Of a stretch of DNA of 64,000 nucleotides, positions 5,450-64,000 are shown in pieces. Origin of the DNA: Ahniellaceae bacterium (lineage in GTDB: Bacteria > Pseudomonadota > Gammaproteobacteria > Xanthomonadales > Ahniellaceae); the NCBI GenBank assembly GCA_044226395.1, contig JBGAHD010000004.1:577961-641960 (forward strand), read 5' to 3'. The stretch's first letter is position 1; each line of letters begins with the position of its first letter. The notes beneath the pieces were generated by a model. That model saw only the letters and a list, made by a program, of their open reading frames with translations, did not search any database and was not told the DNA's origin. The position numbers and the translations under genes are program-made.

Positions 5450-6079
5450 CTACAGCGCCTCGTTGGCGGCGGTCGGTTCCTCGCCCACGGTCCACAGGCG
5501 CTCGAGGCCGTAGAACTCGCGAATGCGCGGCAACATCACGTGCACGACAATGTCGCCCAGATCGACCAGGACCCACTCGGCCTCGCGCTCGCCTTCCACG
5601 CCCAGGGGCAACACGCCCGAGCGCTTGGCGAAACGCACCACTTCATCGGCGATGGACTTCACATGCCGCGTCGAGGTGCCGCTGGCGATGATCAGCATGT
5701 CGGTGAACGAGGCCTTGCCGCGCACATCGACTTCCTTCACGTCCTTGGCCTTGAGATCGTCCAGCGCGGTCAGCACTTGCTTGCGCAGTTGCGCCACGAC
5801 GGTGGGCAATTTTCCGGGACCGGCCTGATCGATGATCGACTCGGACGGCGCGGTCTTGGCGGGCGCGGGAGCCTTGGCGGGCTTGGCGGGCTTAGCGAGT
5901 GTGGGTGCCTTGGCGGGCTTGGCGGCCTTGGCGGGCGCGTCGGACTTGCGTGGGGTCTTGACGCCGCGAGCGGGCGCCTTGGCCTTCGGCCGGTCGGCGG
6001 CTTTGGCGCCGGCCTTCTTCGGGGCCCGCTTGGCGGGCGACGCGGACTTCTTGCTGGCTACAGCGGTTTTTTTGACCAA
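5450..6079 (-). CDS. rsfS: ribosomal silencing factor RsfS (Iojap) with Lys/Ala/Pro-rich histone-H1-like N-terminal extension
   Basis: C-terminal ~120 aa align with RsfS (LDDLKAKDV ... GTSTRHVKSIADEVV ... LPLGVEGE ... WVLVDLGDIVVHVM). N-terminal ~85 aa of KPAKA-type repeats use genome-typical codons (AAG/GCC/CCC). No ATG is available; the start is the TTG at 6079 or an internal GTG. Confidence 0.7.
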   Translation of the reverse strand: MVKKTAVASKKSASPAKRAPKKAGAKAADRPKAKAPARGVKTPRKSDAPAKAAKPAKAPTLAKPAKPAKAPAPAKTAPSESIIDQAGPGKLPTVVAQLRKQVLTALDDLKAKDVKEVDVRGKASFTDMLIIASGTSTRHVKSIADEVVRFAKRSGVLPLGVEGEREAEWVLVDLGDIVVHVMLPRIREFYGLERLWTVGEEPTAANEAL

Positions 6080-19557: not shown

Positions 19558-19750
19558 CGAAGTCCTCCTTGCGAACGGATCCGCGGGCAGCCGCGAGCCG
19601 CGGACGTGATGTCCCGCTCGCGCGGTGTCTCGGGATCGGGAATGGTGACGGGGGCGTGCATGCCGCGTCGTGCTTTCTTCTACGCGAGGTGGCGGCGATT
19701 CCCATCATGGGCGTGGGCGCGCCCTTTCGCGACGCGCGACGTGCGCGACG

Positions 19751-19807
19751 CGCGACGTGCGCGACGCGCGACGTGCGCGACGTGCGCGGTGCGGCGCGCG
19801 GCGCGAA
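19751..19807. repeat. tandem 16-bp repeat (GACGCGC+GACGTGCGC) x ~3.5
   Basis: Reads gacgcgcgacgtgcgcgacgcgcgacgtgcgcgacgcgcgacgtgcgcgacgtgcgc. It lies in the intergenic region upstream (5') of the beta-helix protein gene. Confidence 0.6.
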
Positions 19808-20916: not shown

Positions 20917-21498
20917 TCAATTCGCGCCGCTGGCGAACTTCAGCGCCGAATGCGCGGGGTCGAGACGCGGCGCGAGTTCATACACATTGCGATAACCGTA
21001 GGTGTACAGCGCGACATACGTCGACAGATTCAACGACGCCATTGGCAACTTGCTCGGAAACGCGCGCTCGCTGTTGACGAAGTTGTTGTTGCAATAGATC
21101 AGAATGCGCGCGTCTTTGTCCGGCAGCGTTTGTTCGAGCGTGGCCAACGCGATGTCGGGAAAGCTCAAGTTGATCGCGCCATCGATGTGCAGCTCGCGGA
21201 ATTTCTCCGCGCTGCGCGCATCGAGAATGATCGTACCCGGCTCGCGACTGAGCGCGATGAACTCCGCCTCCGACACCCGCCGCTGCGCGCGATGACGCGC
21301 GGCCTCGTCGGCGATGGCGAGGAAGCCCGCCATGTCGATGTTGGGGTTGTCGAGCGTGGTGGTCGGTGGCGCGGTGGCGGCCGCTGGGGCCGAAGCCGAA
21401 GCCGAAGTGGCCGCGGATTGGCGAGAGGGCGAAGTGGCGCAAGCGCCGAGCATGAGAATCAGTGAGGCGAGCGTGAGTGATACGACGGTGCGTTCCAT
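20917..21498 (-). CDS. rhodanese-like domain lipoprotein
   Basis: Lipobox LILMLGAC. Rhodanese active-site loop context ILIYCNNNFVNSERA. Confidence 0.6.
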   Translation of the reverse strand: MERTVVSLTLASLILMLGACATSPSRQSAATSASASAPAAATAPPTTTLDNPNIDMAGFLAIADEAARHRAQRRVSEAEFIALSREPGTIILDARSAEKFRELHIDGAINLSFPDIALATLEQTLPDKDARILIYCNNNFVNSERAFPSKLPMASLNLSTYVALYTYGYRNVYELAPRLDPAHSALKFASGAN

Positions 21499-21576
21499 GT
21501 TCCCCTCCCAAGCGCGTCAGGCGCGAGGGACTTGATTCGAGGGGTGGGGGGAAGTTCCCGGGGGTGGGGGCCGGTT

Positions 21577-22240
21577 GGGGACACCCAAGATTCCCAAGAG
21601 CCGCGAAGGCTCCTCGATTGGGGACACCCATGATTCCGGTCAGACCTGGGGGTCCTCCGACAGGGGGGCCGATATCTGGACACCCATGATCACCAGATGC
21701 CGGGGCCGCGAATGGGAACACCCATGAGCCTCAATCGAGATCAGGACACCCATGATCCCCACATGCCGGGCTTGTGAAATCGAGGACACCCATGGTCATC
21801 AGCGAGAATCGGACTGCCGATCCCGGACAACAAACGCTTTCAATTCAGCCAGATACTTCTGAATCGGGCGAACAATGGCGGTCCAATACCGAATCCCCAG
21901 GATTATGGGTGTGAAATCGAGGACACCCATGGTCATCAGCGAGAATCGGACTGCCGATCCCGGACAACAAACGCTTTCAATTCAGCCAGATACCTCTGAA
22001 TCGGGCGAACAATGGCGGTCCAATACCGAATCCCCAGGATTATGGGTGTCCCGATCTACGCCGATCGCCTGTGCGAACTGTGGGTGTCCCGATCAGCTCG
22101 GGAATCGGTGGGTGTCTCCAATCCCTCGCCTCCGGTCGCCTTCCCGAACCGTGGGTGTCCCGATCTGCTCGGGTGTCCCGATCTGCTCGGGAATCGGTGG
22201 GTGTCCCCATTCCCTCCCCGTGGGTGTCCCCATTCCCTCC
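21577..22240. repeat. array of ~15 copies of an ~11-bp core (GGACACCCATG / CACGGGTGTCC); ~7 forward then ~8 reverse; central 137-bp tandem duplication (21776..21912 and 21913..22049)
   Basis: Direct reading. Forward cores at ~21577, 21612, 21679, 21716, 21753, 21784 and 21921. Reverse cores at ~21907, 22044, 22081, 22110, 22153, 22170, 22199 and 22222. Spacing is mostly 30-40 bp. The 137-bp units differ by one base. Confidence 0.75.
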
Positions 22241-22242
22241 CC

Positions 22243-22944
22243 TCACCCCTCCACCCCCCGAAACCTCAACCCTACCCCCGGCTCGGTAATCAGGTACCTC
22301 GGCTCCGCGGCGCTGTCGCCCAGGCGCTGACGCAGGCGGCCGACGAGGACGCGCAGATAGTGGGTGTCCTCATCGTGGGATGTGCCCCAGACTTCGCGCA
22401 GGAGCTGCGCCTGCGTCACCACTCGACCCGCATGCCGCAGCAAAATCGCAAGCAGCGCGAATTCCTTACGTGACAACGCGACGGGCTGCCCTTCCCGCGT
22501 GACGACGCGACGCGCGAGGTCGATGCGCAGCACGCCGTCGTCGTACACCACGTCGCCGCTTTCGCCCGCGCCGCGCGCGCGCAGCAGGGCGCGCACGCGC
22601 GCCATGAGTTCTTGCACGCCGAAGGGCTTGGTCACGTAGTCATTCGCGCCGAGGTCGAGCAGTCGCACTTTCTCGACTTCGCGATCGCGCACCGAAAGCG
22701 CGATGACGGGCACGGTCGAGGTAGTCCGCAATTCGCGCAGCACATCGCCGCCGTCGCGGTCGGGCAGGCCGAGGTCGAGGATGATCAAATCGGGCTGCAA
22801 CGCAGCGGCGGCGGCGAGTCCTTCTTCGCCGTTGGCGGCTTCGATCACGGCGAAATCTTGCGCGCGCAGGCTGATTTCCAGGAATCGCCGGATCGCGGGT
22901 TCGTCGTCGATGATCAGGATGCGCGCCTTGGCCGCGGCCGGCAT
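22243..22944 (-). CDS. kdpE: KDP operon response regulator KdpE (OmpR family)
   Basis: MPAAAKARILIIDDEP receiver domain plus a winged-helix C-terminus. The start is 2 nt after the kdpD stop. The listed ORF's N-terminal extension is rejected. Confidence 0.9.
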   Translation of the reverse strand: MPAAAKARILIIDDEPAIRRFLEISLRAQDFAVIEAANGEEGLAAAAALQPDLIILDLGLPDRDGGDVLRELRTTSTVPVIALSVRDREVEKVRLLDLGANDYVTKPFGVQELMARVRALLRARGAGESGDVVYDDGVLRIDLARRVVTREGQPVALSRKEFALLAILLRHAGRVVTQAQLLREVWGTSHDEDTHYLRVLVGRLRQRLGDSAAEPRYLITEPGVGLRFRGVEG

Positions 22945-41216: not shown

Positions 41217-43388
41217 ATGAACGCCACGAGCGCCAGCATCGAACGCAAACCGGAGATTCCCGGCTATCGCCTGGAACGCCGGCTCGGCGCGGGCGGCATG
41301 GCCGAAGTGTGGCTGGCGACCCAGGTCTCGCTCGAGCGCCTGGTGGCGGTGAAGATTCTTTCGACCGACGGCGGCATCACCACCGACATGGCCGCGCGCT
41401 TCGAGCGCGAGGCGCGCGTCATCGCCAAGCTCGATCATCCGCACATCGTCGGCATCTACGACGTCGGGCGCATGACCGACGGGCGCTTGTTTTACTCCAT
41501 GCCTTATCTCAACAACGGCGATCTGGGTCGGCGCGATCTGCGCTACGCGCCGGTGGAGATTCTGCGCATCCTGCGCGCCTTGCTCGATGCCCTGGCCTAC
41601 GCGCACGCGCAAGGCGTGGTGCATCGCGACGTCAAGCCGCAGAACGTGCTGTTTGACAAGAACCAGCGCCCGCTGCTGGCCGATTTCGGTATCGCGCTCG
41701 CGCGCGGCGAAGGCGTGCGCGTGACCAGCCAGCGCCAGACGCTGGGGTCGACCGGCTACATGAGTCCGGAGCAAGCGCGCTCGGGCGATGTCGATGGTCG
41801 CGCTGATTTGTACAGCCTGGGCGTGGTCGCGTACGAGATGCTCACGGGCGAGCTGCCCTATCGCGGCTCCGACGCCTTGGCCGTGGCGATCGCGCACGTC
41901 GAGGAACCGATTCCGCGCCTGTCGCCGACCTTGCGCGCGTGGCAGGCCTTCATCGATCGCGCGCTGGCCAAGGTGCCCGATCTACGCTTCGCCACCGCGG
42001 CCGAGATGCGCGCGGCGCTCGATCAGGTCGAGCAAGTGCTCGCCGGCATCGCCGAAGCGCCCGCGGACGCGCCCGCGCCGAATGCCGCGCGCGCGCGACC
42101 GTTCAACGGTCGACTGGTCGCTTACGGACTGGCCTTGATCGCGGCGATCGTCGGCGCCTACGCCGGCGTGCGTTGGTATCAGACCCGCGAAGTCGTCGCC
42201 GACACGCCGCCGACCGCGTCACCGGACGTGCGCATCGTCGACGCCGAAGCGCTCGACACCTTGTTGCGCGACGGTTACGCCGCGCTCAAGCGCGGCGCCA
42301 CCGTGCTGCCCGAGGACGACAACGCCGCGCAACGCTTCGCCGAGATCCTGCGGCAAGCGCCCGCGCACACCGAAGCGCGCGTGGGCTTCGATCAAACTCT
42401 CGAAGCCGCCGCGCAATCGAGCGAACGCGCCATCGCCGCCGGTCAAGGCGTGCAGGCCGCGCAGTGGTACGACGCCACCTACGGCGCGGTGCAGGCCAGC
42501 GGCTTGCGCGACTACATCGGTTGGGCGAGCTACGCGATGCGCTTCGAGAAAGCGGTCGAACAAGCGCTGCAAGGCGCGATCGATCGTCTCGACCGCGGCG
42601 TGCTCGAACGCCTGGGCCCGGCCTTCGATCGCGCCTTGATGAATTCACCGGGCTTGGAAGCCTTGCGGCAACGCGTCGCCGCCCTGCCCGCCGCCGGCAG
42701 CATCGTCAACGATCCTTCGGGCGCGCGCGTGGCCTTGATTCCCGCGGTGCGCGACGGCAGTCGCATCGAGCACGCCTTCGCGCTGGGCGTGACCGAAGTC
42801 ACGCGCGCCGAATACGCCGAATTCGCGCGCGCGACGCGGCGCGAATCGGCGCGCTGTCGCGACAACTCCGGTCCCATCGCGCTGCTGCGTCGACGCGATT
42901 GGGAAAACCCCGGCATCGATCAAGGCCCCACCGAACCCGTGATCTGCGTCAGCGGCGACGACGCGCGCGCCTACGCCGCATGGCTGGCCAAGCGCAGCGG
43001 CCTGCCCTATCGCCTGCCCACGCGCGCCGAATGGCGACACGCCGCCGCCGGCATCGGCGAGCAAGCATGCAAGGTCGGCAATCTCCTCGATCAACGCACC
43101 GAGCGCGCGTTCTCCATGACCTCGCGCTACGAATGCGATGACGGCTACGTGCGCACCGCGCCGGTCGGCCGCTTCCCCGCCAATGTCTTCAACCTGCGCG
43201 ACCTCGCCGGCAACGTCAGCGAGTGGCTCGGCGAATGCGCCGAAGACAACTGCGCGCGCCGCTTCGTCGCCGGCTCGTCCTACCGCGACGGCCCCGACCT
43301 GCCAGTGCTCGGCGCGGTGCAATCGCGCGAAGACGACGCCGCGAGCACGAGCATCGGGTTTCGGGTGGCGCGGGATTTGAGTTTTTAA
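41217..43388 (+). CDS. serine/threonine protein kinase fused to C-terminal FGE-sulfatase (SUMF1-like) domain
   Basis: Kinase motifs GAGGMAEVW, VAVK, HRDVKPQNVLF, DFGIA and SPEQ. TM segment LIAAIVGAYAGV. C-terminal formylglycine-generating-enzyme-like region (RLPTRAEWRHAAAG ... GNVSEWLGE). Confidence 0.8.
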   Translation: MNATSASIERKPEIPGYRLERRLGAGGMAEVWLATQVSLERLVAVKILSTDGGITTDMAARFEREARVIAKLDHPHIVGIYDVGRMTDGRLFYSMPYLNNGDLGRRDLRYAPVEILRILRALLDALAYAHAQGVVHRDVKPQNVLFDKNQRPLLADFGIALARGEGVRVTSQRQTLGSTGYMSPEQARSGDVDGRADLYSLGVVAYEMLTGELPYRGSDALAVAIAHVEEPIPRLSPTLRAWQAFIDRALAKVPDLRFATAAEMRAALDQVEQVLAGIAEAPADAPAPNAARARPFNGRLVAYGLALIAAIVGAYAGVRWYQTREVVADTPPTASPDVRIVDAEALDTLLRDGYAALKRGATVLPEDDNAAQRFAEILRQAPAHTEARVGFDQTLEAAAQSSERAIAAGQGVQAAQWYDATYGAVQASGLRDYIGWASYAMRFEKAVEQALQGAIDRLDRGVLERLGPAFDRALMNSPGLEALRQRVAALPAAGSIVNDPSGARVALIPAVRDGSRIEHAFALGVTEVTRAEYAEFARATRRESARCRDNSGPIALLRRRDWENPGIDQGPTEPVICVSGDDARAYAAWLAKRSGLPYRLPTRAEWRHAAAGIGEQACKVGNLLDQRTERAFSMTSRYECDDGYVRTAPVGRFPANVFNLRDLAGNVSEWLGECAEDNCARRFVAGSSYRDGPDLPVLGAVQSREDDAASTSIGFRVARDLSF

Positions 43389-43419: not shown

Positions 43420-44754
43420 TCAACGCAGGCTCGTGTTGACCACTGGCCGATGCGTGTAAAAGGCCACGGCCGCGAGCCCGCCTTCGGACACGGTCACTGA
43501 AAAACCTTCGCCATTGCGCGCGTCGCCGCCGTACCACACGCCATTCATCCAATCGTGGGTGGTGGTCTCCGCGAAGCCGGTGGCTTCGCATTGCGTGGTG
43601 AAGCGCGTGCCGAGCAGCAGGCGAATGGGATAGCCGCCGGTGCCGAAGCCCGCGGCATTGGCGCCGGTGGAATCCCAGCTCACTTGACCCGTCGTGCAGG
43701 AGTCGAAGGCGATGCGCACGCTGCCCCAGCGCGCGTTGCGAATGTCGGCGGGATTGAACGCGGCGCCGAAGGCCGTGCCCGTGGCCGAGGTCATTTCCGC
43801 CTGCACGATCTTGTTGGCGATGGTGCCGGCGCCGACGATCCAATACTGCGTGCCGACTTGCGTGACGGTGTCGGTGGCGTTGGCGATGCTGATCGCGAAG
43901 GTCGCGCCCGAAAGTCCACCGGTGCCGCTCGCGCCGATCAGGCCCAGAAACTGGCCTTGCGCGCTCACGCGAATGGCGGAGTCGCCTTCGGCCACCAGCA
44001 GATTGCCGTCGGGCAACCAGCTCATGCCCGTGGGCTGGCCGAGGTTTTCGGCGAACACGCCGATGAAGGCGCCCGTGGTGCCGTAACGCAGGATCTTGCC
44101 CGAGCCTTCGCTGCTCACGAGCATGTTGCCATTGGCTTCGAACACGATGCCGCGCGGACGGAACAAACCGCCAGCCGCGCGCGCGACGAAGATGCTGGCC
44201 TGCTGCGAGTTCGGATCCCAGGCGACGATGGTGTTGGCGTCGTACGCGGGAATGTACAGACGACCATCGGGACCGAAGGACATGCCATTGTCGGGACCAT
44301 TGAGGCCGGCCGCGCCGGCGGCGACGACCGTGGCCTTGAGCGCGCCGGTCTGACGATCGTAGCGACGCACTGAGTCGCCCTCGTAACCGCCGACGTAGAC
44401 ATCGCCGTCGGGACCGAAGGCCATGCCGGTCGGGTTGAAGCCCGTGCCGGTGTTGATGAAGCTGTCCTGGAAGGCGAGCGTCGATGCGTTGTAGCGCAGG
44501 ATCTGGCCATTGCCTTCGCTGACCACGTACAGCAGACCATCGGGACCGATGCGCATGGCCTGCGGGCCGACGATGTGGTTGCCGCTGTCGAGCGTGCGTT
44601 CGAAGGTGCCCGTGCAGGCGTCGAAGACGCTGACGCTGTTGCTGAAGTAGCCGCCGATCAGGATGCGTTGCGCGCACGCGGCCTCCGCGGTCGAGGCGAG
44701 GGCGAGCAGCGCGAGGGTCGGCAGGGCCGGGAGGAGGGACTTCAGTCGCGACAT
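43420..44754 (-). CDS. secreted NHL-repeat / six-bladed beta-propeller protein
   Basis: Signal peptide MSRLKSLLPALPTLALLALASTAEA. Repeated GPDGxLYV/NxPxGMxFGPDG blades. Preferred over the overlapping frame 43385..45103. Confidence 0.65.
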   Translation of the reverse strand: MSRLKSLLPALPTLALLALASTAEAACAQRILIGGYFSNSVSVFDACTGTFERTLDSGNHIVGPQAMRIGPDGLLYVVSEGNGQILRYNASTLAFQDSFINTGTGFNPTGMAFGPDGDVYVGGYEGDSVRRYDRQTGALKATVVAAGAAGLNGPDNGMSFGPDGRLYIPAYDANTIVAWDPNSQQASIFVARAAGGLFRPRGIVFEANGNMLVSSEGSGKILRYGTTGAFIGVFAENLGQPTGMSWLPDGNLLVAEGDSAIRVSAQGQFLGLIGASGTGGLSGATFAISIANATDTVTQVGTQYWIVGAGTIANKIVQAEMTSATGTAFGAAFNPADIRNARWGSVRIAFDSCTTGQVSWDSTGANAAGFGTGGYPIRLLLGTRFTTQCEATGFAETTTHDWMNGVWYGGDARNGEGFSVTVSEGGLAAVAFYTHRPVVNTSLR

Positions 44755-44906
44755 GGATCGACTCCGGTTTCGAGGGGCGGCCAGGGTGCCGGGGGCGATT
44801 GATGGGTGTCCCGAAGTCGGGTTCCTTTTTTTCTCCGTTCGTGGCGAGGTAGCTGCAAGCGCTTGATGGGCTTGGCAAGTCGCGCGCGCTGGGGCAAGGT
44901 GAGGCG

Positions 44907-47141
44907 ATGAGCGAATGGCCGCGCGCACGACTTCGAATCGGCGAGTTCGACTTCGATACCTCGAGCTTCGAACTGCATCGCGCCGGCGTGACCCAGCGCC
45001 TGCCCCATCGCCTGGGCGGCTTGTTGTGGCGTCTGGCGCGCGCGCCGGGCGAAGTGCTCGGTCGCGACACCTTGATCGCCGACGTCTGGTCCGGCCGCGC
45101 CACCGACGACGTGCTCTCGCGCGCGGTCGCCGACCTGCGCCGCTTCCTCGCCGACGATTCCCGCCAGGCGCGTTACATCGAGACCGTGCCGAAGATTGGC
45201 TATCGCCTGATCGCCCCGGTGCGCGACCTCGCCGAATCGAGGACACCCATCGATTCCAGGACACCCCTCGAAGCGAACTCCGATTCGGGGACACCCATCG
45301 AATCCGGAACCACCCGCAACTTCGGGACACCCACGGATCTGGGTCTCGATTCCAGGACACCCACGGATCGACGCCAGCCCAAGCCGCGCCAATCCAGGAC
45401 ACCCACCAAACGCCAACTCGCGCTCGCCATCGGCCTGACCCTGCTGGCCTCGCTCGCCGCGTGGCGCTGGTCGACCTCCGATTCGCCACGCACCGACCCC
45501 AGCCCCCTCGGCCTCTCACCACAACGCCTCACCACCGAACGTCCGCTCACCGCCGACCCCGGCTGGGAACTCCACCCCAGCCTGTCGCCCGACGGCAGCC
45601 TCGTCGCCTTCGCGCGCATGGACAAGTTCGGCGCGAGCAGCACCCTGGTCGCGCGCTACGTCGACGGCAGTTCCGAACGCGAGTACGCCGAGCCCGCCGG
45701 CTGGAATCTGCATCCCGCATTCTCGCCACGCGGTCAGCAACTGGCCTTCATCCACGTCGGCGCCGACGGCGATTGCGAAGTGCGCCTGCGCCCCGTGCAT
45801 GGCGATCCTTCCGTCGTGGTCGGTCGCTGCGCGGGACTCAACACCGCCGTCGCCTGGCGCGCGGACGGCGAGGCGCTGACCTTCACCGCGCCCGCGGACG
45901 ACGATCACGATCCCGGCCTTGTCGAACTCACGCTCGCCACGCGCGCGATCGAGCCGCTCACCCAACCGGCGCGCGGCGCCGGGCCCGACAGCGATCCGCA
46001 GTACGTGCCCGGCGGCGACGAGATCAGCTTCGCGCGCGGCACCGGCAGCGACGCGCGCCTGCTCGCCGTCACGCGCGACGACGCGCATCGCGAACGCACG
46101 CTGTTCGGCGGCGGCAATCTGATCCAGGGCCACGCGTGGAGCGCCGACGGCGCGCAAATCATCATGGCCACCGACTGGCCCGGCTATCGCGCGCTGATCG
46201 GCATCGATCCGCGCACGCTCGTGGGCAACACGCTCGGCGCGCGCGGCGCGCGCAGTCCCACGACCAACGCGCGCGGCGACTGGGCCTACGAGATCGCGCG
46301 TTACGACGCCAATATTCATCGCGTCGATTTTCGCGACGACTCGGTCGACGAACACGCGCTCGTCGCCAGCACGCGCTACGACGCTTCGATCGCGCTGTCG
46401 CCCGATGGTCGACGTCTCGCCTTCGTCAGCACGCGTCTCGATCACGAATCCATCTGGATCGTCGACACCGCCGGCGGCGACGCGGTGCGCGCGCCACTGC
46501 CCGACACCGGTCGCTGGGTGCGCCCCGCGTGGTCGCCCACGGGCGATGCGCTGCTGGTCACGCGCTATCTCGACGACATCACCACCGCGCATCGCCTCGA
46601 CCTAGCCAGCGGCCGCGCGCGCGAACTCACCGCGCTGGGCCGCGCGTTCTACGCGCAATATCTCGAAGACGGCGAACGCTTCGTGTTCGCGCGACTCGAA
46701 GCCACGGGCTATCGCCTCTTTCTCGCGCCGGCCGACGGCTCGGTCGAACCCGAAGCGCTCGACATCGCTGGCGCCGTCGGCGAGTTCTACGCCGGCGATC
46801 ACTGGCTCGCCTGGCAGCGTCGCGACGACAACACGCTCGCGGTCTACGATCTGCGTCGTCGCGCGCTGACGCCCTTGCCCGATGACTGGGCCACCGCGCG
46901 CCCCGAGGACTGGCGCTTGCAAGGTCATCGCCTCTACCGCATCGTCGACGACGAAGGTCAAGCTCCGCGCCTGCGGCGCCTCGATCTCGAAGACGGCCAG
47001 ACCCACGAGTGGCCCGCGCGCGCCACGCGCGCGACGGCGCCCGCGCTCGCGGTGGCGCCGGACGAAAGCTTCGCGCTGTTCGCCAGCCTCGACGATCTCG
47101 AGGTCGATCTGATGTGGGTGCCCGCCGCGCGCTCGCCCTGA
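44907..47141 (+). CDS. CadC/ToxR-like winged-helix transcriptional regulator fused via TM helix to periplasmic TolB-like beta-propeller
   Basis: N-terminal trans_reg_C-like region (FDFDTSSFELHRAGVTQRLPHRLGGLLWRL ... ETVPKIGYRLIAP). Linker with S/G-R-T-P repeats. TM helix LALAIGLTLLASLAAW. TolB-like repeats (SLSPDGSLVAFAR, AFSPRGQQLAFIHV, ALSPDGRRLAFVS). Confidence 0.7.
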   Translation: MSEWPRARLRIGEFDFDTSSFELHRAGVTQRLPHRLGGLLWRLARAPGEVLGRDTLIADVWSGRATDDVLSRAVADLRRFLADDSRQARYIETVPKIGYRLIAPVRDLAESRTPIDSRTPLEANSDSGTPIESGTTRNFGTPTDLGLDSRTPTDRRQPKPRQSRTPTKRQLALAIGLTLLASLAAWRWSTSDSPRTDPSPLGLSPQRLTTERPLTADPGWELHPSLSPDGSLVAFARMDKFGASSTLVARYVDGSSEREYAEPAGWNLHPAFSPRGQQLAFIHVGADGDCEVRLRPVHGDPSVVVGRCAGLNTAVAWRADGEALTFTAPADDDHDPGLVELTLATRAIEPLTQPARGAGPDSDPQYVPGGDEISFARGTGSDARLLAVTRDDAHRERTLFGGGNLIQGHAWSADGAQIIMATDWPGYRALIGIDPRTLVGNTLGARGARSPTTNARGDWAYEIARYDANIHRVDFRDDSVDEHALVASTRYDASIALSPDGRRLAFVSTRLDHESIWIVDTAGGDAVRAPLPDTGRWVRPAWSPTGDALLVTRYLDDITTAHRLDLASGRARELTALGRAFYAQYLEDGERFVFARLEATGYRLFLAPADGSVEPEALDIAGAVGEFYAGDHWLAWQRRDDNTLAVYDLRRRALTPLPDDWATARPEDWRLQGHRLYRIVDDEGQAPRLRRLDLEDGQTHEWPARATRATAPALAVAPDESFALFASLDDLEVDLMWVPAARSP
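45240..45406 (+). repeat. in-CDS tandem repeats of the GGACACCCA core (encode D/E-S-R/G-T-P linker repeats)
   Basis: Units GAGGACACCCATCGATTCC, AGGACACCCCTCGAAG, GGGGACACCCATCGAATCC, GGGACACCCACGGATCTGG, AGGACACCCACGGATCG and AGGACACCCACCAAACG. Confidence 0.6.
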
Positions 47142-63761: not shown

Positions 63762-64000
63762 GTTCGCGTTATCGGGCGCGGCGCGTTGGTGCGTTCGATG
63801 CGATGGAGGATTTCGACTTCGTGACCGCGCGCGTAGTCGTCTTCGCTGGCGTTCGCGTTACGCGCTTGGATGCGGTCTTCGATGTCGACTTCGATGCGGA
63901 TTTCGATGCGGTATTCGATTCGGACCCCGCATTGCCCTTCGAGGCGACCTTCGCTTTCGTCGCCGACTTTCGCGCCTTGGCCCCACCGCTCGACTTAGCT

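Follow-up and report, generated by a model that had tools for sequence, protein, structure and literature searches.

Here we analyzed a short motif, RGGACACCCAY (core GGACACCC), which recurs at two loci in a 64-kb stretch of DNA from an Ahniellaceae bacterium (contig JBGAHD010000004.1); the whole of this stretch is referred to below as the window. One of them, locus B, comprises the gene of a membrane-bound regulator and the intergenic region upstream of it; the other, locus A, consists of an array at 21538-22280 together with a copy within kdpE. The features of both loci are as follows, with positions in the window.

43420-44754, minus strand: gene of a secreted NHL/SGL-type beta-propeller protein, the divergent neighbour of the regulator gene, outside the repeat family and syntenic at the orthologous locus (L123/L124).
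44796-44812, minus strand: solo copy GGGACACCCATCAATCG (CGATTGATGGGTGTCCC on the plus strand), in the divergent intergenic region between the propeller and regulator genes.
44907-47141, plus strand: host gene, encoding a membrane one-component regulator of 744 amino acids.
45240-45406, plus strand: six in-frame copies and one degenerate copy, read as SRTPID / SRTPLE / SGTPIE / (SGTTRN) / FGTPTD / SRTPTD / SRTPTK.
21538-22280, unstranded: inverted double array without a gene (a 'TIRtron shell', like a miniature inverted-repeat transposable element, MITE), recognized from the sequence and its inverted-repeat pairs.
21578-21930, plus strand: left arm of the array, with seven cores starting at 21578, 21621, 21677, 21715 (degenerate, GGAACACCCAT), 21743, 21783 and 21920.
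22042-22230, minus strand: right arm, with seven cores at 22042, 22080, 22108 (degenerate), 22151, ~22171 (GGGACACCCG), 22197 and 22220.
21773-22049, unstranded: 137-bp tandem duplication (2.0 copies, 99% identical) in the centre of the element.
22360-22370, minus strand: isolated AGGACACCCAC in the kdpE coding sequence, encoding EDTH in ...SHDEDTHYLRV...

The motif is strongly enriched in the window. GGACACCCA has 18 exact matches, compared with 0.23 expected, and this count was reached in none of 100 shuffles of the window; all matches fall within 21579-22369 or 44803-45405. When one mismatch is allowed, RGGACACCCAY has 22 matches where 1.96 are expected, 21 of which sit at the same two loci, while the remaining one is weak. 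These numbers confirm the observation, made in an earlier note on this DNA, that the two loci share a motif. The window is GC-rich, with a GC content of 68% in the contigs carrying this locus. Rfam contains no family matching locus A or locus B, its sole match in the window being a tRNA-Ile, and a literature search with the motif string returned only coincidences with primers. Other short tandem repeats are present in the window, at 19728-19805, 5850-5948 and 63865-63925 (a CGCGACG-based 16-bp unit repeated 3.7 times, 9/18-bp units repeated 5-10 times and a 12-bp unit repeated 5 times), and none of them is related to the GGACACCC family.

The regulator is composed of a Trans_reg_C winged helix (residues 37-101), the repeat-derived linker, a transmembrane segment (the hydrophobic stretch LALAIGLTLLASLAAW, residues ~171-186) and a PD40/TolB-like beta-propeller, and its earlier description as a CadC-like winged helix-turn-helix protein fused through a transmembrane helix to TolB/PD40 is correct. 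The linker cores start at 45241, 45259 (GGACACCCC), 45289, 45325, 45355 and 45397, and the degenerate unit GGAACCACCC lies at about 45305. Each of the core spacings (18, 30, 36, 30 and 42 bp) is divisible by three, and the open reading frame (ORF) is intact with both domains. Read in frame, the cores encode (S/G)(R/G)TP, in units of the (S/G)(R/G)TP(I/T)(D/E) type, at residues ~112-167. Hence, six tandem units do encode the linker between the DNA-binding domain and the transmembrane helix, as had been proposed, and the copies supply about 45 amino acids of this cytoplasmic juxtamembrane linker. The solo copy is located 42-58 bp upstream of the ATG of the propeller gene (44754) and 95-111 bp upstream of that of the regulator gene (44907). 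Its presence on the minus strand of the promoter region had also been noticed before, although the position then given, ~44800-44816, is off by about 4 bp. A promoter and terminator scan of 44650-45000 found nothing, including no sigma-70-like promoter around this copy.

It had also been suggested that an extended unit is common to both loci. This holds for the best pairs, which have up to 15-19 nt of flank in common: the array copy GGGGACACCCATGATTCC (21620-21637) matches the linker copy GGGGACACCCATCGAATCC (45287-45305), and the promoter copy and the copy at 45325 have ACTTCGGGACACCCA in common. It does not hold for the copies in general, as the 20 flanking bases of array and regulator-locus copies are on average only 32% identical, and the shared part is therefore the core of ~11 nt.

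A comparison with a syntenic orthologous locus (L123, L124), in which the gene order propeller gene / regulator / DUF502 / Vut_1 is the same, is informative about the linker copies. GGACACCC is absent from the 14 kb of this locus, which include the promoter, the coding sequence and the flanks, and the linker of the orthologue is 42 amino acids shorter, the alignment gap being located exactly at the position of the repeats. The tract is therefore best explained as a lineage-specific insertion or expansion. Furthermore, the repeat linker was found in 0 of 119 homologues of the regulator, which carry unrelated Ala/Pro-rich linkers; the nearest homologue is 45% identical, and one of Xanthomonadales type, from Tahibacter, is 32% identical. 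The organism is only distantly related to those sequenced so far, and its three sources, namely the window, L001 and L002, are identical. Beside the propeller/regulator pair, at 41217-43388 on the plus strand, lies a gene for a Ser/Thr protein kinase fused to an FGE-sulfatase (SUMF1-like) domain, and the equivalent position of the orthologous locus (L123, 1418-4628) is occupied by genes for a Pkinase-TPR protein and an extracytoplasmic function (ECF) sigma factor.

The array at locus A is flanked on one side by a rhodanese-like gene (20917-21498, minus strand) and on the other by the 3' end of kdpE, whose stop codon is at 22243-22245. Its outer arms, 21538-21587 and 22221-22280, are 73-75% complementary, and as single-stranded DNA the unit of ~740 bp has a fold-back structure that is more stable than those of shuffled sequences (z = -6.7). 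The terminal inverted repeats of the element are imperfect, and it contains no credible gene; no target-site duplication could be defined, and the right end overlaps codons of kdpE. The order of the arms, a block of plus-strand copies followed by a block of minus-strand copies, equals the polarity of arrays that surround Y1 transposase genes in other genomes (see below). The 137-bp duplication has its junction within a reverse core (ATGGG-TGT-GAAATCG versus ATGGG-TGT-CCCGATC). This hints that the cores act as breakpoints for array growth, and it is compatible with either microhomology or enzyme-mediated exchange. The isolated copy in kdpE is 130 bp away from the array, and could be either a chance match or a copy seeded in a conserved domain. 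The C-rich outer arm of the array (22243-22280) extends over the end of kdpE, including its last ~12 codons and its stop codon (...GLRFRGVEG*), and the element may have remodelled the C-terminus of KdpE. Repetitive extragenic palindromic (REP) elements are known to supply stop codons sometimes.

The repeat family extends far beyond the window. We scanned one genome per bacterial and archaeal species, 596 Gb in total, for the three-core pattern GGACACCCA-N12-42-GGACACCCA-N12-42-GGACACCCA, for which about 0.07 chance matches are expected by our own estimate, based on uniform composition. At least 120 array loci from several phyla were obtained. The taxa listed are mostly marine and freshwater Gammaproteobacteria (Microbulbifer, Marinobacter, Pseudohongiella, Halieaceae, Lysobacterales and Woeseiaceae), and the matches listed further include Acidobacteriota, Planctomycetota, a deltaproteobacterial metagenome-assembled genome (MAG) and others. 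The arrays contain 3-28 copies with an irregular spacing of 15-60 nt, often as a plus block followed by a minus block. A logo of 905 copies reads R-GGACACCC-A(95%)-Y(85%), with R at position -1 and flanks that are near random between genomes. As the scan selected for the exact core, its conservation is partly ascertained, but in additional copies beyond the matched triplets, A is nonetheless found at +8 (95%) and Y at +9 (85%).

Flank identity is 59% within an array, 39% between arrays of one genome and 26% between genomes, from which it appears that a new site is founded by hardly more than the core and grows locally afterwards. Array-specific flanks around a common core are exemplified by L072, L073 and L109, from one MAG, and by L051, L104 and L111, from one Pseudohongiella genome. 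Copies occur at three places in the window, and multiple gene-less arrays coexist with a Y1 locus in one genome, for example in OX638323 (L051, L104, L111) and JAPPLI01 (L072, L073, L109). The core GGACACCC lacks self-complementarity as well as a GTAG/GTGG foot, and short flanking inverted repeats are found in some copies only. A universal hairpin with the core in its loop was considered and dropped: it is seen in some copies (GATTCG-GGGACACCCAT-CGAATC at 45283-45305; L059) and is not general.

Several features of the arrays were noted along the way. The largest one among the loci listed (L048, 6720-7565), in a gammaproteobacterial MAG from Lake Baikal, spans ~900 bp; its 28 copies are all on one strand, with GGGTTTCCC / GGATTGCC sub-repeats interspersed between them. 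Many arrays are located at contig ends (L019, L022, L026, L037, L054, L078) or at gaps (an N run at ~1183-1196 of L072), and the arrays appear to break short-read assemblies. In addition, long spurious ORFs with DTH, GTP, GHP, WVS or GCP repeats run through arrays.

All-against-all clustering of the ORFs at the array loci yielded one dominant family, which is present at 26 of the 120 loci listed. Its members have a length of 320-340 amino acids (~325) and contain the invariant motifs NHYH, FWEGRF, YVDLNP and TS. In two alignments, A1, made of sequences from the array loci, and A2, rebuilt from database matches, the invariant residues are N70 H71 (Y72) H73, W162 E163, Y183 (V184) D185 L186 N187 P188 and T203 S204. 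The arrangement of gene and repeats is regular: at most of the 26 loci, sense-strand copies are located ~30-370 bp upstream of the gene and inverted copies ~145-500 bp downstream of it, with 1-7 direct copies on the one side and 1-7 inverted copies on the other. The family gives a sub-threshold match to NCBIfam REP_Tyr_transpos, the REP-associated tyrosine transposase (RAYT; E about 1e-9 to 1e-10), and a match below the cut-off to Pfam Y1_Tnp. It is labelled 'REP element-mobilizing transposase RayT' by JGI, where it forms at least 8000 clusters at 90% identity. When the PDB sequences were searched with a profile of the Y1 alignment, no match at E <= 1 was obtained. The AlphaFold model (pLDDT 79, pTM 0.81), on the other hand, has as its best Foldseek match 4ER8_A, which is TnpA_REP of E. 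coli in complex with a REP hairpin (E 8.8e-4, probability 1.00, TM-score 0.65 normalized to the target), followed by the TnpA proteins of ISDra2, IS608 and IS200. The protein is thus predicted to have the HUH/Y1 fold of the IS200/IS605-RAYT group. By its length and by all four motifs, it matches TnpA_Y1 subclass 2.3 in Table 1 of PMC6006769, and would be assigned to that subclass.

Other types of element had been our first guesses because of the plus/minus layout of the arrays, namely Tn7-, Mu- or IS21-like transposon ends with multiple transposase-binding sites, iterons of plasmids or phages, centromeres of the parC type, DNA uptake sequences and CRISPR. All of them were dropped after clustering of the neighbouring genes had revealed a single recurrent HUH/Y1 gene and neither DDE transposase nor Rep or Par genes.

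The regulator is not the only protein with a linker built from the core. In-frame arrays are also present in an M81 peptidase/MlrC (L029), between its two domains; in methionyl-tRNA synthetase (MetRS; L043, L109), between the anticodon-binding and tRNA_bind domains; in the HrpA helicase (L110), between DEAD and Helicase_C; and in a sigma-54 activator (L027), at its C-terminal tail. The two MetRS orthologues share 88% identity but differ in the number and sequence of their array units. Across these proteins the core is read in all three frames (GTP/RTP, DTH and GHP), sometimes inside one array, which speaks for seeding at the DNA level without a requirement for a particular peptide. In all verified intragenic arrays, about six independent cases, the core is on the sense strand. 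It is suggestive, in this small sample, that the antisense frames (WVS, GCP, MGV) are poorly tolerated in a disordered linker.

Based on these results, we consider it probable, at roughly 80%, that RGGACACCCAY is the core of a dispersed repeat family of RAYT-like Y1 proteins (TnpA_Y1 subclass 2.3, related to TIRYT), and that the window holds non-autonomous copies of it, among them the linker tract. The motif would then most likely be selfish DNA and not the binding site of the regulator. The autonomous unit would be the Y1 gene between direct upstream and inverted downstream copies, with gene-less arrays and solo copies scattered in the same genome. The window would contain three non-autonomous forms, namely the 740-bp double array, the solo intergenic copy and the six-copy linker block. 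We infer that the Y1 enzyme recognizes or cleaves the core and seeds new copies, after which arrays may grow and shrink locally by slippage, by unequal exchange, or by Y1-mediated cleavage and rejoining at the cores. The linker block would have arisen as a lineage-specific insertion or expansion, and would survive because the core is stop-free in any frame, because its sense strand encodes polar, disorder-friendly peptides (RTP, GTP, DTH, GHP), and because the segment into which it inserted tolerates changes in length. The proposal in the earlier note that coding and non-coding DNA are seeded by one and the same repeat family is supported by the 120 or more array loci, by the arrays that flank Y1 genes and by the in-frame linkers in unrelated proteins.

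The same note offered as an alternative that the regulator recognizes the motif and autoregulates. In that case, its winged helix would bind GGGACACCCAT; autoregulation and control of the propeller gene would be exerted through the promoter copy, a second target would be provided by the kdpE-proximal array, and the copies in coding sequence would be incidental. The location of the solo copy in the divergent promoter region, at the distances from the two start codons given above, would suit an operator, and a core that is conserved across genomes between flanks that are not has the look of a protein-binding site. However, an operator would be expected to be conserved with its regulator, and there is no copy in the orthologous 14 kb (L123, L124), where the linker is also shorter by 42 residues; the regulator family is widespread without RTP linkers; and a regulator homologue is present at 0 of the 120 array loci listed, compared with 26 for Y1. 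OmpR/CadC-type winged helices usually bind direct repeats, whereas the promoter region has a single copy, around which no sigma-70-like promoter is predicted. Autoregulation through the motif is therefore unsupported and in our view improbable, and the copies at the regulator locus presumably have no operator function, as far as the sequences can tell. Somewhat less improbable, yet still unlikely, is that the peptide itself is now functional, the (S/G)(R/G)TP(I/T)(D/E) units having been exapted either as a tuned signalling linker or as Thr-Pro phospho-acceptors for the kinase encoded at 41217-43388. It is true that every copy is in frame and sense-oriented, that the Pkinase gene lies two genes upstream, with a Pkinase gene beside the orthologous locus as well, and that linkers of CadC-type regulators matter for signalling. 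Other proteins, however, read the same core in three frames (GTP, DTH, GHP), and the homologues of the regulator manage with unrelated Ala/Pro-rich linkers.

Two further explanations dispense with a mobile element. The array could be the decayed remnant of a paralogous linker-coding region, or gene conversion could have taken place between the two loci, since some array units translate into GTPMI- or RTPMI-like peptides. We find this very hard to reconcile with array spacings that are not multiples of three and with copies in both orientations, with a polarity equal to that around Y1 genes elsewhere, with identical cores in unrelated phyla, and with flanks of the array that contain no winged helix-turn-helix or PD40 remnants. 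The least credible explanation is that a coding tandem repeat coincides by chance with an unrelated intergenic repeat. Coincidences of this kind do occur, as several Actinobacterial matches to the pattern show, but for the window this is refuted by the statistics, as 18 copies stand against 0.23 expected and no shuffle reached 18; in addition, the flanks agree over up to 15-19 nt in the best pairs.

Several observations nevertheless weigh against the assignment to a Y1-associated repeat family. No Y1 homologue was detected in the 64-kb window (tblastn with 17 Y1 proteins; nothing below E = 0.03), including in the lower-GC centre of the array, which had been suspected to contain a gene remnant, and the copies in the window could be relics. 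Only 26 of the 120 loci listed have a Y1 gene within 8 kb. Some matches, mainly those from Actinobacteria (L038, L042, L058, L066, L074, L075, L087, L099), consist of regular 9-36-bp coding tandem repeats, such as DKDPGQDTHQQP in Streptomyces; they lack a nearby Y1 gene and are probably false positives, unrelated to the family, in which the 9-mer occurs by chance. Conservation is limited to a core of ~11 nt, while in REPINs the whole unit of 20-100 nt is conserved, and the core might on this account be maintained as a protein-binding site; moreover, the repeats have neither the palindromic hairpin unit nor the 5' GT[AG]G foot of REPs. We know of no biochemical work on TnpA_Y1 subclass 2.3. Finally, an automatic and manual search by Quentin, Siguier, Chandler and Fichant (2018, BMC Genomics 19:475; PMC6006769) found no REP-like sequences for subclasses 2.1 and 2.3, and the association between the arrays and Y1 consequently rests on the present analysis.

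If the repeat family is of the kind proposed here, the regulatory story for the window falls away, and the motif is uninformative about what the regulator binds. An abundant 'orphan' RAYT-like family, reported to be without cognate repeats, would be tied to a simple and searchable DNA signature, through which its recognition of DNA can be tested with an 11-nt oligonucleotide. This link at the level of subclass 2.3 is the part that is worth following up. The in-frame arrays add clear cases of selfish DNA building protein linkers, with copy numbers that vary between orthologues. It would also be useful for annotators to recognize the spurious ORFs with DTH, GTP, GHP, WVS or GCP repeats as derived from arrays, and to be aware that the arrays break metagenome assemblies.

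The kind of element is already known, and several described systems resemble it. Di Nocera et al. (2013, BMC Genomics 14:522; PMC3733652) reported TIRYT genes that are flanked by terminal inverted repeats (TIRs), which do not form hairpins and share GGGGWSAS; these TIRs constitute moderately abundant families of singles, dimers or clusters, also in Xanthomonadales (S. maltophilia, Stenotrophomonas). We found no later literature that uses the term TIRYT. As in these TIRtrons, the loci related to that of the window have a RAYT-like Y1 gene flanked by inverted non-hairpin repeats, although the window itself has no Y1 gene. GGGGACAC, at 21577, 21620 and 45287 and in reverse at 22198 and 22221, fits GGGGWSAS, and other copies carry GGGACAC or AGGACAC. 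Here, however, each 'TIR' consists of multiple copies of a short core, arrayed with variable spacers between them, and the Y1 protein would belong to subclass 2.3, whereas Quentin et al. placed most TIRYTs in subclass 2.1; in addition, in-frame intragenic arrays are undescribed for TIR families. The proteins resemble subclass 2.3 in their median length of ~325 amino acids, in the motifs NHYH / WE / YVDLNP / TS, in the presence of multiple copies per genome and in their prevalence in marine Gammaproteobacteria. They differ from it in that their genes are flanked by oriented RGGACACCCAY arrays, and in that they occur in a wider range of taxa, including Acidobacteriota, a deltaproteobacterial MAG and Lysobacterales.

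In the case of the REP/REPIN-RAYT systems (Nunvar 2010; Bertels & Rainey 2011; Ton-Hoang/Messing 2012, 4ER8), the likeness consists of short extragenic repeats that flank a single-domain HUH Y1 gene and are presumably mobilized by it, of dispersed non-autonomous copies, and of inverted pairs that are able to fold back. In contrast to the palindromic and entirely conserved REPIN unit, that of the present family is not palindromic and, as the flank identities of 39%, 59% and 26% show, not conserved as a whole; its core, on the other hand, is conserved across phyla, whereas REPINs co-diverge with their host. The host gene has the architecture of ToxR/CadC-type regulators, with a TolB-like propeller in the periplasm and, connecting the winged helix to the transmembrane helix, a disordered linker in the cytoplasm, but the repeat is not a feature of that family (0 of 119 homologues).

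Insertion of REP-type elements in frame into genes has been documented (PMC3733652, PMC6006769), and the Rickettsia palindromic elements (RPEs) are described, in the account of Ogata et al. (2000) given in PMC3733652, as in-frame palindromic elements within genes. The linker tract of the regulator is like them in being in frame and stop-free, in leaving the gene intact and in being absent from the orthologue. The RPEs and the intragenic GTAG/CGTC REPs (Di Nocera 2013) share with the present arrays that selfish short repeats are inserted in frame and tolerated in loops, linkers and termini, and that tRNA synthetases and helicases recur as hosts; they are single or dual hairpin units, whereas here multi-copy tandem arrays provide tens of linker residues and vary in copy number between orthologues. 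Neither PMC3733652 nor PMC6006769 describes oriented, multi-copy arrays whose 11-nt core spans phyla, the connection of these arrays with subclass 2.3, or multi-copy arrays that are in frame. We propose tentatively, with a confidence that falls a little short of even, that RGGACACCCAY arrays are the unrecognized cognate DNA of subclass 2.3. They would form a distinct, non-hairpin class of REP-like elements, characterized by a cross-phylum core of ~11 nt in oriented, iteron-like arrays that perhaps grow by Y1 cleavage and rejoining at the cores, and whose sense-strand arrays have repeatedly created or lengthened disordered inter-domain linkers, as in MetRS, HrpA, MlrC and the CadC-like regulator.

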